Assembly (NCBI GenBank): GCA_019747895.1 | Contig: JAIEQF010000019.1 | Location: 71,363 to 135,362, forward strand | DNA length: 64,000 bases | From: Chthoniobacterales bacterium | GTDB lineage: Bacteria; Verrucomicrobiota; Verrucomicrobiia; Chthoniobacterales; UBA6821 | Direction of reading: 5' to 3' | In this document: positions 2,884 through 58,125 of the stretch, piece by piece | How positions within the stretch are numbered: the stretch's first letter is position 1 | Layout of the letters: the number at the start of each line of letters is the position of its first letter | Notes under the pieces: generated by a model | What the model was told of the DNA's origin: nothing | The model's input: only the letters and a program-made list of their open reading frames with translations | Databases searched by the model: none | Program-made: the position numbers and the translations under genes

Positions 2884-2996
2884 GAAGAAATTAGCGACAA
2901 AGAACACAAAGAAATCAAAGAAAAAAACTGCCTTTAATTTCTAGAATTTTTTTATAAAAAAATTCTTTCTTTGTGTTCTTTGTGGCTATTCTCTTC
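2884..2996. repeat. Word-arm hairpin element, CACAAAGAA class (between catalase stop and SYLF gene)
   Basis: Left arm gaagaaattagcgacaaagaacacaaagaaatcaaagaa, right arm ttctttctttgtgttctttgtggctattctcttc. The loop contains a perfect 11-bp palindrome, agaattttttt/aaaaaaattct. Confidence 0.85.
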
Positions 2997-3031
2997 TTCT
3001 TGCCTTGTAACTCAACCTGTTGCAAAGCAGC

Positions 3032-4471
3032 TTAACTGCTGCGAAGCAGCTTTCTCACTCCCTTGCCATAAGCAGGGTCGGCTTGATCGAAGAGAAGGCA
3101 TTGTCGCTCCTGGATTTCTTTTGGAACTCCGTTCATGGCTGCGGCAATGTTGGCGAAGAGACGCTCTTGTTCATCAGGTGGCATTAAGCGAAAAAGATTT
3201 CCGGCTTGAGTGAAATTATCATTGCCCTCATTTCCATTGTAACGATCGGCGGCGACATGGCCGAGATCCTGAGGCGGTTCAGCAAAACTCGGGTCTTCCT
3301 TTGGTCCGTTAAAACTATTTGGTTCGTAATAGGCGTCTCCCATCGTTGGTTCATCAAAACGCATCGCCCCGTCATGATGATAGGTCGCCATCGGGCATTT
3401 AGGACGATTGACTGGCAGCATTTCATAATGGGTTCCCAGACGATGACGATGAGCGTCGGCGTAGCTAAAGACGCGGGCTTGGAGCATCTTGTCAGGTGAG
3501 AAGCTGATGCCAGGAACGATGTTGGATGGCGAGAAAGCTGCTTGCTCAATTTCCGCAAAATAATTTTCAGGATTGCGATTCAATTCCAACATACCCACAT
3601 CGATGACCGGATAATCTTGGTGAGGCCAAACTTTGGTGAGATCAAACGGATTGAAACTGCAGGTGGCAGCTTGCTCTTCCGTCATGACTTGAACTTGCAT
3701 TTTCCAACGTGGAAAATTTTTTACCTCGATCGATTCAACGAGATCACGCTGGTTGCTTTCACGATCTTGGCCGATCAGTTTTTCTGATTCGGCATTAGTC
3801 ATGAATTTAATGCCTTGTTGCGTTTTAAAATGAAACTTTACCCAATGACGCTTTCCTTCTTTGCTGATGAGGCTGTAGGTATGGCTCCCGTAACCATTCA
3901 TGTGACGAAAGTTGAGAGGGATGCCGCGATCGGAAAACAGAATCGTAACTTGATGGAGGCTCTCAGGGGAGAGAGACCAAAAATCCCACATCGCGGTTGT
4001 GCTGCGAAGATGAGTTTTTGGATGACGTTTTTGAGTGTGGATGAAGTCTGGAAATTTGTAAGGGTCACGTACAAAAAAGACCGGCGTGTTGTTCCCAACA
4101 AGATCCCAGTTTCCTTCTTTGGTATAAAACTTCATTGCAAATCCGCGCACATCGCGCTCGGCATCGGCGGCGCCGAGTTCTCCAGCGACTGTGGAAAAAC
4201 GAACGAGGCATTCGGTCTTCGTGTTCGGTTGTAGCGCTTGAGCTCGGGTATATTTTGAAATATCGCCCGTGATCGTGAGCGTCCCATAAGCGCCGGAACC
4301 TTTGGCATGAACGGTCCGTTCAGGAATGCGCTCGCGATTTTGATGCGCTAGTTTTTCGAGAAGTTGAAAGTCGGTCATCAAAAGTGGCCCGCGTGGACCA
4401 GCAGTGAGACTATGTTGGTTGGTGGCAAAGGGGCAGCCGGCGGTGGTCGTGATGGTTTTGTTGGAGTTCAT
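3032..4471 (-). CDS. katA: Monofunctional heme catalase (about 479 aa, small-subunit type)
   Basis: ORF 3032..4570 trimmed to the ATG at 4471 ([15 protein letters not shown]...); the extension lies in a repeat arm. Family motifs RERIPERVVHAKG-like ([18 protein letters not shown]), FSTVAGE and [14 protein letters not shown]. Confidence 0.93.
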
Positions 4472-4538
4472 AAAAATGGATGGTTTTATAATATAAAAAA
4501 TATTTAACCGCAAAGTAGCGCAAAAAATTTTAGAAAAA

Positions 4539-4604
4539 GAAATAGCCACAAAAGAACACAAAGAACACAAAAAAGTTCCTTTGTGTTCTTTTGTGGCTAT
4601 TCTC
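4539..4604. repeat. Word-arm hairpin, CACAAAGAA class, tight loop
   Basis: gaaatagccacaaaagaacacaaagaacacaaaaaa - gttcc - tttgtgttcttttgtggctattctc. One extra word in the left arm gives a bulge. Confidence 0.85.
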
Positions 4605-4644
4605 TTCTTTGCCTTGCGTTCTTTTTTGTTATCTTCTTTCTCTC

Positions 4645-5817
4645 ATGACTAAAAAACAACTCCAACTTGGGACGCTCCTTTTTGCCGTCTTCATTGATAT
4701 GTTGGGGTTTGGAATTGTGATGCCGATTTTGCCGCGTTATGCTGAAATGCTTGGAGCTCCTGCGTGGCAGATTGGATGGGTGATGGGAATTTTTTCTTTG
4801 GCACAATTAATCATGCTGCCGTTTTGGGGGCATCTTTCCGACCGCATCGGGCGTAAGCCTGTTTTGGTGATTAGCATGTTAGGAACGGCTGTTGGATACT
4901 TGATCATGGGAGTGGCACATTCCATGACGATGGTGCTTTTAGGGCGAGCTCTTGATGGAGCTGCTGGAGGTAACATCAGTGTGATTCAGGCTTCTGTGTC
5001 CGATCTCACAACGCCTGAAGAGCGCGCTGGCATGATGGGAAAAATAGGAGCTGCTTACGGGTTTGGATTTATTTTTGGACCAGCCTTAGGAGGATGGAGT
5101 GCCTATTATTGGGGAGGAGCAGCTCCGATGCTGATAGGAGCTTGTTTAGCAGCTTTGAACGTCTTTCTCATTTTAGCAATTCTTCCGGAGCCACTGAAAG
5201 AAAAGAAAATGAAAGGGGAAGGGCATCCTCCGCTTTGGAAAATTTTAGAACATGTCGACAAGAAAAAATATCTTCCGGCTGTTGCAACTTTTTTTTGTTT
5301 TGTGGTTGGATTTTCAATGATGATGACGTTGTTGGCTCTTTTTTTCTATCATCGTTATGGAGTCAATGAACTCAAGGTAGGATACGTTTACACGATGTTT
5401 GGGATTATTGCGATTGTGCTTGAGGGAGGGCTGTTTGGATTTTTATCACAAAAGTTTAGTAGTCGCAGAATTGCCACTATTGGTGCGCTTCTATTGGTAG
5501 GAGCTTCTTTTGTTATGCCACTAACCTGGAGTACAGCAATGGCCGTTGGCTGTTGTGCGATCTTGGCCATTGGTGATAGCTTGTTGACACCGGTGCTTCC
5601 CACCGTTGTCTCAAAAAGCGCCAAGGAACAATGGCAAGGAGCAGCTTTTGGATTTTACCAATCAGCTGGTTGTTTAGCTCGTTGTGTCGGACCAGTGATG
5701 GCAGGGTCGTTTCTTGCCATTAATCTCCAAGGTCCTCATTATGCCTTAACTTCTTTTTGGATTGCTTCAGGATTTTTGCTGATTTCTTTTTTCTTTTCGC
5801 TCAGACTCCCTAAATGA
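4645..5817 (+). CDS. MFS transporter (12-TM, tetracycline-resistance-like subfamily)
   Basis: ORF 4591.. trimmed to the ATG at 4645 (MTKKQLQLGTLLFAVFIDMLGFGIVMPILP). GHLSDRIGRKPVL is the MFS loop 2-3 motif. Confidence 0.85.
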   Translation: MTKKQLQLGTLLFAVFIDMLGFGIVMPILPRYAEMLGAPAWQIGWVMGIFSLAQLIMLPFWGHLSDRIGRKPVLVISMLGTAVGYLIMGVAHSMTMVLLGRALDGAAGGNISVIQASVSDLTTPEERAGMMGKIGAAYGFGFIFGPALGGWSAYYWGGAAPMLIGACLAALNVFLILAILPEPLKEKKMKGEGHPPLWKILEHVDKKKYLPAVATFFCFVVGFSMMMTLLALFFYHRYGVNELKVGYVYTMFGIIAIVLEGGLFGFLSQKFSSRRIATIGALLLVGASFVMPLTWSTAMAVGCCAILAIGDSLLTPVLPTVVSKSAKEQWQGAAFGFYQSAGCLARCVGPVMAGSFLAINLQGPHYALTSFWIASGFLLISFFFSLRLPK

Positions 5818-56785: not shown

Positions 56786-56847
56786 CGGATTAGCTAGCAG
56801 TAAAGCAGAAAGCCATAAACTTCCCGTGACAATGGGAAAGATTTTGA

Positions 56848-57387
56848 TCAAGGTTTAAGAACACGAATTTCTGGAAGGTTCCTATAATATTCCTGATAGT
56901 CGAGGCCATATCCGACAACAAATTCATCAGGAATTTCAAATCCAACATAGTGAGCCGTGATGTTTTCAGTGGTCTTTGCTGTTTTGTGGAGGAGCACGCA
57001 AGACTGAAGGCTTGCGGGGCCTTTGGTTTGAAGGTATTCGCTGAGAACTTTCAATGTTTTTCCGCTATCGAGAATATCATCAATGAGCAGAAGGTGGCGG
57101 TCCGTGATATCAGGAAGCGGGACGGATTGAAGAGTGACCATGCCGGAAGAGACAGTGCCTCCGTGGTAGCTTGATACAGGAATGATTTCCAATCTGAGAG
57201 GAAGAGGAATGAGGCGGAGGAGATCTGCCAAAAAGACAATGCTTCCCTTCATGAGGGCAATAATGGTCAATTCTTTGTCTGCATAATCTCGTGTGATAGC
57301 CGTTGCAAGTTCAGTAACTCTTTTTTGAATGGCCTGTTGATCAACAAGAATTCGATCGATGTTGGGTGTTTTCGTTTTGTTGGTCAT
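56848..57387 (-). CDS. hpt: Hypoxanthine-guanine phosphoribosyltransferase
   Basis: ORF trimmed to the ATG at 57387. PRPP-binding motif LLLIDDILDSGKTL. Confidence 0.92.
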   Translation of the reverse strand: MTNKTKTPNIDRILVDQQAIQKRVTELATAITRDYADKELTIIALMKGSIVFLADLLRLIPLPLRLEIIPVSSYHGGTVSSGMVTLQSVPLPDITDRHLLLIDDILDSGKTLKVLSEYLQTKGPASLQSCVLLHKTAKTTENITAHYVGFEIPDEFVVGYGLDYQEYYRNLPEIRVLKP

Positions 57388-57483
57388 AAGAAAATAAGTT
57401 AAAATTATCAGGAAATATTTGTTAGCGAAGCCTATTGAACTCAAGCTCAAACTTCAAGCACTCAAGCTCTAGATGCGAAGCAG

Positions 57484-58086
57484 CTAGTCAAATGATCCTA
57501 AGGCTCGTAATTGTCCGTGAGAGAGCTCAAAAAACTCAGTGCTAATGGGAGTAACAGAAAGTTTATAGTCATCACGGATCTCCGGAGCAATGCTATTCAT
57601 GGGAGGAAGTAATTTTGAAAAAATATAAACACGATTGGAAGAGGGGATAGCAATCAGGAGATCGGGGCCAAATATCCTTGTAAAGTGAGCGGCAAAATCA
57701 GGAGCAAGAATCGTTGAGGCAGTTACAGGTTGAGGCGATTCTAATAAGGCAACTTGAATAACGCCATGTTCATCGCGCAAAAATTTAGGAGCAAGTTTGG
57801 CGAGCTCGGCAGAAAGATTAGAGCGAGCTTGTTCCACGAAGTGATGCATCTTTTTTTCGGAGAGTGTTTGGTATCCTGGTTCCAAAAGAGCGACAGTTGC
57901 CTCGCCGTTATTTTTTTTGATGAGCCAGGCTGGCACGATGACGGTGCGCTCAGCTCCTGCAATCTTTTGTTGCAGGGAAGCATGAAGAAAACTTGGCTCC
58001 ACAAGCAGGATTGGAATTTTTTCTTCACGGGCAGTAAGAGCTGGCAAAGAAATAATTAAAAAAAATGTAAAAAATTTTAATATCAT
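57484..58086 (-). CDS. Secreted protein of unknown function
   Basis: ORF trimmed to the ATG at 58086, which begins the signal peptide MILKFFTFFLIISLPALTA. The track extension is translated repeat arm. Confidence 0.55.
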   Translation of the reverse strand: MILKFFTFFLIISLPALTAREEKIPILLVEPSFLHASLQQKIAGAERTVIVPAWLIKKNNGEATVALLEPGYQTLSEKKMHHFVEQARSNLSAELAKLAPKFLRDEHGVIQVALLESPQPVTASTILAPDFAAHFTRIFGPDLLIAIPSSNRVYIFSKLLPPMNSIAPEIRDDYKLSVTPISTEFFELSHGQLRALGSFD

Positions 58087-58095
58087 AAAAAATTT

Positions 58096-58125
58096 CCTGT
58101 AACCTGTAACCTGCAAGCTGTAACC
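58096..58125. repeat. Single ACAGGTT-class arm filling a 46-nt divergent spacer
   Basis: cctgtaacctgtaacctgcaagctgtaacc lies 9 nt from the ATG at 58086 (- strand) and 7 nt from the ruvA GTG at 58133. Confidence 0.85.

Follow-up and report, generated by a model that had tools for sequence, protein, structure and literature searches.

The stretch of DNA considered here, 64,000 nt of a contig of a Chthoniobacterales bacterium (JAIEQF010000019.1, positions 71,363 to 135,362, assembly GCA_019747895.1; hereafter the window), has a GC content of ~44% and carries ordinary housekeeping genes, among them those for catalase, secretin and RNase PH as well as lepA, accA, carB, icd, cydAB, tkt and ruvA, together with a complete atp operon in the order atpB-E-F-H-A-G-D-C. 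The CydA protein of the window is 80-94% identical to proteins of uncultured Verrucomicrobiota, some of them in metagenome-assembled genomes (MAGs) labelled Chthoniobacterales; the nearest contig by CydA, L001, shows 94% identity. The intergenic spacers between these genes contain hairpins whose two arms are arrays of tandem 7-9-nt words, and two of the hairpins enclose a gene of the PF05635 family, the 23S rRNA intervening-sequence proteins (IVP; IVS denotes the intervening sequence itself). The classes of words are named class 1 (CACAAAGAA), class 2 (ACAGGTT) and class 3 (GTTGAGAG); the remaining words of the window are TTTGAGT, TAATGAGTA and GGATAGAAG.

Hairpins of tandem words in the intergenic spacers

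Spacer statistics were obtained for the 33 window spacers of at least 60 nt. Tandem-word arrays, single arms counted, are found in 23 of them and in two shorter spacers. With a cut-off of an ungapped score of at least 14, inverted repeats occur in 16 of the 33 spacers, compared with 0/33 in mirror-repeat controls of the same sequences and 0/99 in length-matched coding segments. A repeat finder and Tandem Repeats Finder (TRF) recovered both the arms and their 7-9-nt word periodicity. Examples of arm pairs are 52001-52038/52152-52189 (38 nt, 97%), 4541-4563/4579-4601 (23 nt, 100%), 48887-48914/49668-49695 (28 nt, 100%) and 7659-7687/7821-7849 (29 nt, 90%). The arms of the window measure 13-58 nt and are mostly 83-100% complementary, which resembles the terminal stem of an IVS; the weakest pairs reach ~74%. 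Of the 19 listed loci, 18 were predicted by RNAfold to have their terminal arms paired; the z-scores relative to dinucleotide shuffles range from -2.1 to -12. The gap between an arm and the adjacent stop or start codon is typically 4-70 nt. Hairpins are found in tandem, convergent and divergent spacers and also inside operons (atpE-atpF, atpG-atpD, cydA-cydB). The atp and cyd operons are co-transcribed in essentially all bacteria.

The original prediction, made from the window alone, had described paired arms of tandem 7-9-nt words in about 19 spacers and had asked whether they exceed low-complexity chance. The arm structure, the end-to-end folding and the excess over the mirror and coding controls all agree with it. 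By contrast, the predicted hairpin at 53298-53411 does not hold, since word arrays lie on both sides and yet the z-score is ~0 relative to shuffles. The arms that it listed were recovered, but the list was incomplete and lacked the arms at 2145-2240 and 32152-32178 and the inner hairpin at 49475-49583. It had also contrasted the hairpins with families such as the repetitive extragenic palindromes (REP), Correia elements or the enterobacterial ERIC repeats, each of which repeats one sequence. The contrast holds: no such single-sequence family covers the hairpins, and no Rfam model does either. In an Rfam scan of the window only tRNA-Lys passed the gathering score and no rRNA was found; at a permissive threshold the below-threshold matches were chance plant microRNA hairpins only.

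The words do not recur as bare words. Within the window the class 1 arms have in common a ~45-nt consensus that consists of a non-periodic end, AAGAAGAAATTAGCC, followed by CACAAAGAA units and then a run of A. The spacer 17625-17908, which contains a class 3 hairpin, is copied whole at 49422-49628 and, inverted, at 24736-24882. Each class forms a dispersed family of sequences whose non-periodic ends are peculiar to it, and some of these families are common to distant phyla. The "word classes" of the original prediction thus exist in that there are many different words, but their conserved non-periodic termini make them sequence families. Similarly, its alternative between generation at the level of structure and spread of an element was correct in observing one architecture with many words, but the either/or fails, as each class is a dispersed, copy-like family.

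A polarity rule applies throughout. The 5' arm is the purine-richer one in 17 of 19 window loci, the other 2 being ties, and across loci the G-C skew conforms in 84 cases and departs in 20. Words rich in purines come after stop codons and those rich in pyrimidines come before start codons, a rule to which the single arms conform; the same order, purine/G-rich at 5' and pyrimidine/C-rich at 3', is read on either strand.

Class 1 is not confined to the window. Its 18-mer recurs in metagenome stretches, at least 120 of them, whose GC contents range from 0.28 to 0.71; one third of these copies have a complementary arm within a short loop. The end positions co-vary (TTAACC/GGTTAA, TTCACC/GGTGAA, TTAGCC/GGCTAA), and class 1 arms with identical termini, including the TTAACC end, form a hairpin in a Planctomycetales MAG (L068). 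That contig carries a CAATGAC/TTGGTCA hairpin as well as the class 1 hairpin (1990-2160, 7025-7111); TTGGTCA/CAATGAC, of which no hairpin was seen outside this contig, is what we take to be the classical cyanobacterial word of the short tandemly repeated repetitive (STRR) sequences. Matches to the class 1 word in viral contigs (40, none paired) were set aside as chance low-complexity sequence.

Table 1. Word-array elements of the window and the genes they enclose. Stem entries give the length and complementarity of the arms; L001 and L300 are contigs of relatives.
Positions	Element	Setting	Parts	Stem and fold	Remarks
2145..2240	Single class 3 arm (GTTGAG) with GC palindromes	Downstream of tRNA-Lys			Matches 17694-17734, 24766-24806, 48904-48938
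2882..2998	Class 1 hairpin	Ysc84-like gene and catalase, both minus strand	Arms 2882-2914/2966-2998, loop 51 nt	33 nt, 91%; dG -40, z -10	
4534..4609	Class 1 hairpin	Divergent spacer, catalase and MFS transporter	Arms 4534-4563/4579-4609, loop 15 nt	30 nt, 97%; z -10.6	
6586..6756	Class 2 hairpin	TerC and HAD hydrolase	Arms 6586-6610/6725-6749	25 nt, 92%; z -8.3	
7664..7844	TTTGAGT-word hairpin		GC-rich ~80-nt repeat 7693-7771 in loop	24 nt, 96%; z -8.2	
10309..10463	TAATGAGTA-word hairpin	DEAD helicase and unknown gene		17 nt, 88%; z -2.7	Weak case
12306..12468	Class 2 hairpin	Convergent spacer		34 nt, 94% gapped; z -8.6/-10.2 on the two strands	Right arm adjoins signal peptidase stop codon
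13661..13694	Single class 1 arm, 3' type (TTCTTTGTG)	9 nt before lepA start			Matches 4533-4574, 43675-43717
15507..15651	Class 1 variant		Outer arms 15511-15529/15631-15651, inner stem 15553-15624	19 nt, 100%; z -6.7	
17681..17858	Class 3 hairpin	Convergent spacer	GC palindromes among words; GC-rich repeat 17746-17826 in loop		
20759..20889	GGATAGAAG-word hairpin	Divergent spacer, secretin and unknown gene		23 nt, 83%; z -2.9	
23904..23933	Single 3'-type arm, CCTGTAG words	8 nt before methylase gene start			TRF period 7
24728..24829	Class 3 hairpin	Convergent spacer	Left arm pure (GTTGAGAG)x4; two small GC palindromes interrupt right arm	Three-way fold; dG -52.9, z -5.7	
25861..25888	Single GTAATGA-word arm	Just upstream of accA start			Pyrimidine-type array on minus strand; found by TRF
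28241..28435	Class 3 hairpin	Within atp operon, atpE (c subunit) and atpF (b subunit)		22 nt, 95%	
31957..32178	Class 1 hairpin, relic arm included	Within atp operon, atpG and atpD		24 nt, 88%	
32152-32178	Relic TTCAAC array	By atpD start			Orthologous to right arm of atpG-atpD hairpin of L300
37867..37925	Small class 3 hairpin	Upstream of RNase PH		z -6.5, plus strand	
40273..40521	Class 1 composite (nested) hairpin	Rhodanese and SufE-like gene		69 aligned nt, 90%; z -8.4	
43677..43712	Single class 1 arm	58-nt spacer below carB			
46966..47426	Class 2 cassette	Fills spacer of carB and icd	Arms 46969-46995/47390-47416 enclose IVP1	27 nt, 89%	Arms 4 and 7 nt from flanking genes
47021..47404	IVP1, PF05635/TIGR02436 four-helix-bundle gene	Minus strand			
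48879..49702	Class 3 cassette	Fills spacer of icd and His-phosphatase	58-nt arms with mirrored GC palindromes; inner hairpin 49475-49583	57 nt, 93%; z -9	Copy of spacer 17625-17908
48921..49340	IVP2, second PF05635 gene	Minus strand			Pfam E 1.1e-30
50313..50432	Class 2 hairpin	Divergent spacer, His-phosphatase and cydA		23 nt, 87%	
52001..52189	Class 1 hairpin	cydA and cydB		38 nt, 97%; dG -70.8, z -12	Best stem of window
53298..53411	Degenerate GTAACGA/TTACTC arrays	cydB and tkt		11 nt aligned; z 0.1	No significant hairpin
58096..58125	Single class 2 arm, 3' type	8 nt before ruvA start			Kept in L001; found by TRF

Other repeats are interspersed with the word arrays. A GC-rich repeat of ~80 nt is present at 7693-7771, 17746-17826, 34054-34133 and 55687-55765, with a partial copy at 20890-20949; its copies are 78-84% identical and have small internal stems, and two lie in the loops of word hairpins. 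Its appearance is that of a small insertion element in its own right or of a structured RNA. Tiny GC-rich palindromes (e.g. GCCGCTAGCGCGGC, CAGCTGCCAAAGGCAGCG) are located between GTTGA words, either in one arm only or mirrored in both (17694-17734, 24766-24806, 48887-48946, 49635-49695, 2145-2190 and 28407-28425). They also flank the cassette between gyrA and secA of a relative described below (L292, 3941-3955 and 4421-4435). A 170-nt repeat (34189-34358 and 55797-55966) is 94.7% identical in its two copies and is bounded by 31-nt terminal inverted repeats (TATAGTCAAATTACTTAGAACTTACAAGCAA). It is surrounded by a mosaic in which 21561-21613, 34135-34187 and 55619-55659 are mutually similar, 23763-23853 matches 34336-34424, and 1732-1825 matches the reverse complement of 23642-23738. 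Upstream of tRNA-Lys, 1694-1863 contains a 39-nt, 87% inverted repeat without words, and the segment that it encloses recurs at 23642-23738. Textbook bidirectional intrinsic terminators with 12-17-bp stems and T runs on both strands are found at 16490-16527 and 39326-39353; the organism therefore uses ordinary terminators beside the word hairpins.

Intervening-sequence protein cassettes and their turnover

The original prediction had noted larger cargo in some loops and had suspected a tie with 23S rRNA intervening sequences. The cargo consists of two PF05635 genes and the GC-rich ~80-nt repeat, and the tie is borne out insofar as the cargo open reading frames (ORFs) are IVS-protein genes. Both long-loop elements of the window enclose a gene of PF05635/TIGR02436, a family that includes the Avd proteins of diversity-generating retroelements (DGRs). 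IVP1 matches PF05635 with an E-value of 2.6e-32 and TIGR02436 with 2.3e-32, and its nearest solved structure is that of Xanthomonas XCC0516 (PDB 2GSC, E 1.8e-23); solved IVP homologues crystallised with five chains. IVP1 and IVP2 are 43% identical, and IVP2 has a 98% identical counterpart in one Logan contig. The Avd-type model NF033474 gives E 1.6e-6 and 28 bits, compared with a cut-off of 80. PADLOC places IVP in no known defence system. No IVP remnants were found in the loops of the ~20 ORF-less window elements, and the long loops of copies hold IVP genes only, no transposase.

A search with IVP1, restricted to one genome per species, yielded 80 loci whose proteins are 53-72% identical to it. 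They belong to the Planctomycetota, Verrucomicrobiota, Bacteroidota, Spirochaetia, Desulfobacterota, Lentisphaerota, Kiritimatiellota, Hydrogenedentota, Acidobacteriota and others. Inverted arms at the score cut-off of the window analysis bracket the IVP gene in 48 of 71 testable loci as compared with 1 of 285 shifted controls. The arms are again tandem words (e.g. AGGCTGT, AGGCTGG, TAGGGGTT), with AGGCTGT-like heptamers predominating, and the layout is uniform: an upstream stop codon, a G-rich array, a Shine-Dalgarno-like stretch, the IVP gene, a C-rich array and the downstream start. With a median length of 32 nt, the arms are separated from the ORF ends by ~25 nt. The median array comprises 4.3 copies; unit numbers peak at 4-5 and fall sharply above 5, and the period is 7 in 291 of 536 arrays. 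Where both neighbours could be called, the IVP gene had the same orientation as its neighbours in 14 cases and was opposite to both in 3. None of the fetched loci contained a match to 23S rRNA.

The same arrangement extends to plasmids and to contigs of a viral collection. On plasmids of Nostoc punctiforme, Calothrix brevissima and Nostoc edaphicum an IVP gene lies between word arrays (GGGTGTA or AGTAGGG) of the same polarity, and three distant IVP genes in IMG/VR contigs are likewise flanked by arrays; in viral contigs 24 of 44 AGGCTGT matches are paired. According to the supplement of PMC4692102, a GGGAATC array adjoins the start of XCC0516 in Xanthomonas campestris. On the Nostoc punctiforme and Calothrix brevissima plasmids (L287, L288) the cassette is located directly downstream of a tyrosine recombinase/integrase gene, which may be a coincidence or reflect a common plasmid backbone. 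The IVP-bearing genomes also contain, at other sites, ORF-less hairpins built of the same words; in these genomes the array density more than 700 nt away from any IVP is 2.65 per 10 kb as compared with 0.2 in an E. coli sample.

Relatives of IVP2 with 65-70% identity were found between gyrA and secA in L292, with GTTGAAAN words, and between atpD and atpC in another Chthoniobacterales genome (L300, GCA_019747735.1), with GTTTAGGR words. Both genes (4001-4384 and 4001-4381, respectively) are co-directional with the flanking genes, and their cassettes are ~500 nt long, the 25-60 nt on each side being nearly all word arms. Together with the window cassette between icd and the His-phosphatase gene, three loci therefore combine IVP2-type genes with GTTNAGRR 8-mer arms. 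GTTNAG-type words occurred in none of 56 arrays upstream of IVP1-like genes, which carry the 7-mer AGGYTNN. This combination of one IVP subfamily and one 8-mer type at three loci suggests that the IVP gene and its arms move as a unit, and a specificity of subfamily for word is hinted at by a small sample, the three IVP2-type loci plus distant examples. Within the IVP1-like sample there was no signal relating IVP identity to word class (0.657 vs 0.638), because nearly all of that sample is of one word class.

The two arms of a cassette resemble each other more than a common word would demand. In 19 of 29 IVP cassettes the own right arm was the unique best partner of the left arm, and variant words were mirrored. 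The arms are thus kept alike beyond the common word.

Between the window and L001 the genes are 86-95% identical in nucleotide sequence and have the same order, whereas 6 of 8 shared spacers are unalignable, i.e. replaced; most spacers differ in this way in relatives whose genes are ~88% identical. Across ten relatives the spacer between cydA and cydB was found in six states. It contains a class 1 hairpin, a hairpin of GTTCGTA words, a class 1 arm or a TAATGAGTA arm by itself, or a pair of arms that belong to two classes and do not match, or else it is empty (27-51 nt). At the IVP1 site of L001 only the first 17 IVP codons are left. The hairpin between the His-phosphatase gene and cydA (50313..50432) is the only one that can be aligned with L001; its stem differs by one C-G to T-A double change, a single case. 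The window has 4.1 arrays per 10 kb, relatives have 0.5-6.7 and E. coli has 0.2; some sister lineages are array-poor (0.5 per 10 kb). Gain, loss and replacement of the spacer elements is very fast, beyond the change of the flanking genes. In the array-poor L088, a gene for a 353-residue PF01797 (Y1 transposase) protein lies within an GGGGTCAGGCTA inverted repeat (3276-4337) that is unrelated to the word hairpins.

Weighing the interpretations

On balance it is probable that the spacers hold several families of one type of palindromic intergenic element, of which the ORF-bearing 23S IVS is the rRNA-resident case. Such an element would be composed of a 5' array of ~3-5 purine/G-rich 7-9-nt words, a variable AT-rich loop and a complementary 3' array. 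The full-size form, which occurs in many phyla, would enclose the PF05635 gene, and most window copies would be ORF-less miniatures. Since some elements are situated between co-transcribed genes (atpE-atpF, atpG-atpD, cydA-cydB), they would be transcribed and fold into stems of ~20-40 bp. By analogy with IVS stems these may be substrates of RNase III, so that the transcript would be cut or capped between the cistrons. Such processing would render an insertion harmless and might decouple the stability of upstream and downstream mRNA in the manner of REP sequences. REP RNA stem-loops can protect upstream mRNA. The elements are probably tolerated because their ~30-bp RNA stems are processed like those of IVS; in Coxiella, RNase III cuts the 28-bp terminal stem of the IVS in its middle (PMC4990558).

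As to propagation, arms and IVP gene would travel as one unit, with no target duplication and with no transposase in cis. The arms would be kept alike by arm-to-arm templated correction, slippage or selection for pairing. Speculatively, an IVP pentamer might recognise the word arrays and aid the propagation or maintenance of the element, and the relationship to Avd makes an RNA- or reverse-transcriptase-linked spread conceivable. A role of the IVS ORF in mobility was suggested by Ralph and McClelland, as quoted in PMC4990558. A more far-reaching version, which is possible although we consider it rather doubtful, holds that IVP and tandem-word hairpin form one self-propagating cassette system common to many bacteria, a new kind of mobile element that spreads by a new mechanism and in which each IVP subfamily recognises its own word. 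Just as tentatively, the AGGYTNN 7-mer would be assigned to IVP1-like and the GTTNAGRR 8-mer to IVP2-like proteins, and the system would drive the copying or maintenance of full cassettes and miniatures alike.

Several observations weigh against the interpretation of the spacers as families of IVS-like elements. No IVP genes were found in the 621 kb surrounding 120 class 1 copies, and some class 1 copies keep the CACAAAG core while two variable bases are unmirrored; this looks more like recognition of a motif than like pairing. The non-Watson-Crick positions of the arms show no excess of G-U on the IVP sense strand (48 vs 39), and both strands fold about equally. Pairing in the sense RNA is therefore not demonstrably the selected property, and a symmetrising process at the DNA level, or a function on both strands, fits the pairing data as well. 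The RNA step itself is drawn by analogy. In the cas6-cas4 spacer (1370-1990) of the Pseudanabaena galeata plasmid pPg_01 (L290), an IVP gene is accompanied by direct, not inverted, arrays, ~14 AAAGCTA units upstream and ~10 AAAGCCA units downstream. Nor was a mechanism of mobility recognised: the longest flanking direct repeat averages 2.45 nt over 49 elements and 2.25 nt in mismatched-pair controls, which gives no target-site duplication, and the ~40 window ORFs scanned include no transposase, reverse transcriptase or Y1 enzyme. The IVS ORF of Coxiella is, according to a statement in PMC4990558, apparently untranslated in vivo. Finally, the polarity rule, the 7-nt period and the repeated hits to one 30-50-nt spacer are not accounted for.

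Some of these observations would be expected if the words were protein-binding sites, either operator-like arrays in DNA or sites in single-stranded RNA where each heptamer takes one protomer, a mode of binding proposed for Csp-type proteins, and pairing were secondary. The CACAAAG core of class 1 is kept in hosts whose GC contents span 0.28-0.71, and its variable dinucleotides are not mirrored in every copy; arms that stand alone or are of mixed classes have been retained in the right polarity, mostly directly in front of start codons; the period is fixed at 7 nt and the arrays end at ~4-5 units; one IVP gene has direct instead of inverted arrays; and binding has been proposed in print for the Geobacter heptamers (a global regulator) and the TAACTGA repeats (translational control), both discussed below. 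Nonetheless, we regard binding sites as an unlikely explanation. At least six word classes within 64 kb would need many specific binders, the arms of one copy are clearly more complementary than arms taken from different copies, and folding runs from end to end in 18 of 19 loci. Apart from IVP there is no evident candidate for a binder, and class 1 occurs without IVP.

It is improbable that the hairpins were generated in place, growing by slippage and intrastrand template switching under selection on structure, with arbitrary words and without anything moving. One architecture with many words in a single genome, arms that adjoin stop and start codons as though grown to fill the spacer, different words in the same spacer of close relatives, and co-variation of the arms within a copy, mirrored variant words included, would all be expected of such a process. 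It does not explain why non-periodic termini are common to loci and phyla, why an entire spacer is duplicated, why one IVP subfamily is associated with one arm class at three loci or why the AGGCTGT word is found in many phyla. The array-rich and array-poor sister lineages, moreover, look like invasions.

Transcription terminators or attenuators are a very improbable reading. The stems are stable and lie in spacers, some of them convergent, but no T-tails follow the 3' arms, and many hairpins are inside obligately co-transcribed operons (atp, cyd) or in divergent promoter spacers. The canonical bidirectional terminators (16490-16527, 39326-39353) form a separate class. Promoter and terminator consensus scans of the window revealed no enrichment, only a few uninformative promoter-like matches in the AT-rich loops, and word hairpins were not among the strong terminator-like matches. 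Formation of G-quadruplexes, as assumed for the Xanthomonas and Nostoc heptamers, is scarcely credible, since runs of G3-4 are present in some words elsewhere (TAGGGGTT, GGGTGTA, AGTAGGG) but no window word (CACAAAGAA, ACAGGTT, GTTGAGAG, TTTGAGT, TAATGAGTA, GGATAGAAG) contains GGG and neither does AGGCTGT, the commonest IVP-flanking word.

Relation to known repeats and significance

Like the window cassettes, the 23S IVS consist of a PF05635-family ORF within terminal inverted repeats (the IVS stem comprises ~28 bp). Those with an S23p/IVP ORF in Leptospira and Coxiella burnetii are ~430-760 nt long, and the window cassettes measure 461 and 824 nt; those of L292 and L300 have this layout too. 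The 23S IVS have a sporadic distribution, look horizontally transferred and have a stem that is cut by RNase III (PMC4990558). They differ in residing in helix 9, 25 or 45 of the rRNA, whereas the elements described here lie between protein-coding genes, and most window elements, unlike the large 23S IVS, lack an ORF (2 with, ~20 without). The multi-family population of the window is best read as the intergenic counterpart of the ORF-bearing 23S IVS.

Intergenic tandem heptamers as such are known. The GGGAATC repeats of Xanthomonas and the GGGGAYT repeats of Nostoc vary in length between strains (Rehm et al. 2015, PMC4692102), and in Xanthomonas 70-75 cases of two convergent arrays able to form stem-loops were reported (PMC4692102). 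The window shares intergenic words (6-9 nt) and convergent, pairable arrays with these repeats. However, the published heptamers comprise one word per genome, were interpreted as G-quadruplex formers, which the window words cannot be, and their association with IVP was not remarked upon (PMC4692102). None of the published words GGGAATC, GGGGAYT, CCCCAGT and TAACTGA is identical to a window word.

The cyanobacterial STRRs are described as tandem repeats, not as hairpin cassettes, and belong to another phylum with other words; no report linking them to PF05635 was found in the literature. Several families of intergenic tandem heptamers per cyanobacterial genome, able to lengthen RNA helices, were reportedly described by Mazel et al. 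in 1990 and by Vioque in 1997. STRR heptamer families of Calothrix and Nostoc are among those cited in PMC4692102. The TAACTGA repeats of Beggiatoaceae, cyanobacteria and Bacteroidetes are also intergenic heptamer arrays of 2-6 copies (MacGregor 2015, PMC4679880, where three heptamer families of Calothrix are cited). They mostly end 1 nt upstream of a start codon, are patchily distributed over phyla and are absent from orthologous spacers of relatives, but in contrast to the window they involve a single word in nearly always single direct arrays (1/170 inverted) (PMC4679880). In Geobacter metallireducens, groups of four or five tandem heptanucleotides, some in opposite-strand pairs, recur many times in the genome (Aklujkar et al. 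2009, PMC2700814). They differ from the window elements in having been interpreted as sites of a global regulator, in being partly intragenic and in having no described cargo gene.

REP sequences, the BIMEs and REPINs built from them together with their RAYT transposases, and the miniature transposable elements with inverted repeats (MITEs) such as Correia are likewise short, palindromic, multicopy intergenic repeats found within operons. Each, however, repeats one sequence, the REP palindrome with a GTAG head and a Y1 enzyme and the MITEs with a target duplication and a parent insertion sequence. REP/BIME/REPIN were rejected for the window, whose arms are tandem words and not self-palindromic and whose ~40 scanned ORFs include no PF01797 protein; MITEs were rejected because the terminal inverted repeats are present but target-site duplications were not found, nor a parent insertion sequence or a transposase in the window or within any long-loop copy. 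Avd has the same fold family as IVP (PF05635/PF22296), but IVP has neither a reverse transcriptase nor a template/variable repeat pair nearby. A DGR was dismissed since no reverse transcriptase domain was found among the scanned ORFs and IVP scores below the Avd cut-off. Integron attC sites were dismissed as well: the TTAACC...GGTTAA termini fit the RYYYAAC/GTTRRRY core inconsistently, no integrase was found in the window, and the flanks are housekeeping genes (carB, icd, atp, cyd). The CRISPR reading failed on its defining features.

No literature was found on IVP with inverted repeats, on the word strings themselves or on many word classes per genome in Verrucomicrobiota, with incomplete coverage, so that an earlier description is possible. 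Paired heptamer arrays are already known from Xanthomonas, Geobacter and cyanobacteria; the link to IVP and the many classes per genome appear to be new.

PF05635 proteins are very common, and their function outside DGRs is a standing question, as have been, since ~1990, the origin and mobility of the 23S intervening sequences. Reports of heptamer repeats are scattered over cyanobacteria, Xanthomonas, Geobacter and Beggiatoaceae, each with a different functional guess. One cassette architecture with one polarity rule, many phyla and fast turnover ties these reports together and can be tested in Xanthomonas and Nostoc. Short-read assemblies are likely to break at word hairpins, and start-codon calls are likely to be misled by them. 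Elements located within the core operons atp, cyd and gyrA-secA probably influence how the mRNA is processed there. If IVP and hairpin were indeed one self-propagating cassette system, the 23S IVS, the cyanobacterial STRRs, the Xanthomonas 'G4' heptamers and the verrucomicrobial spacers would be one kind of mobile element.

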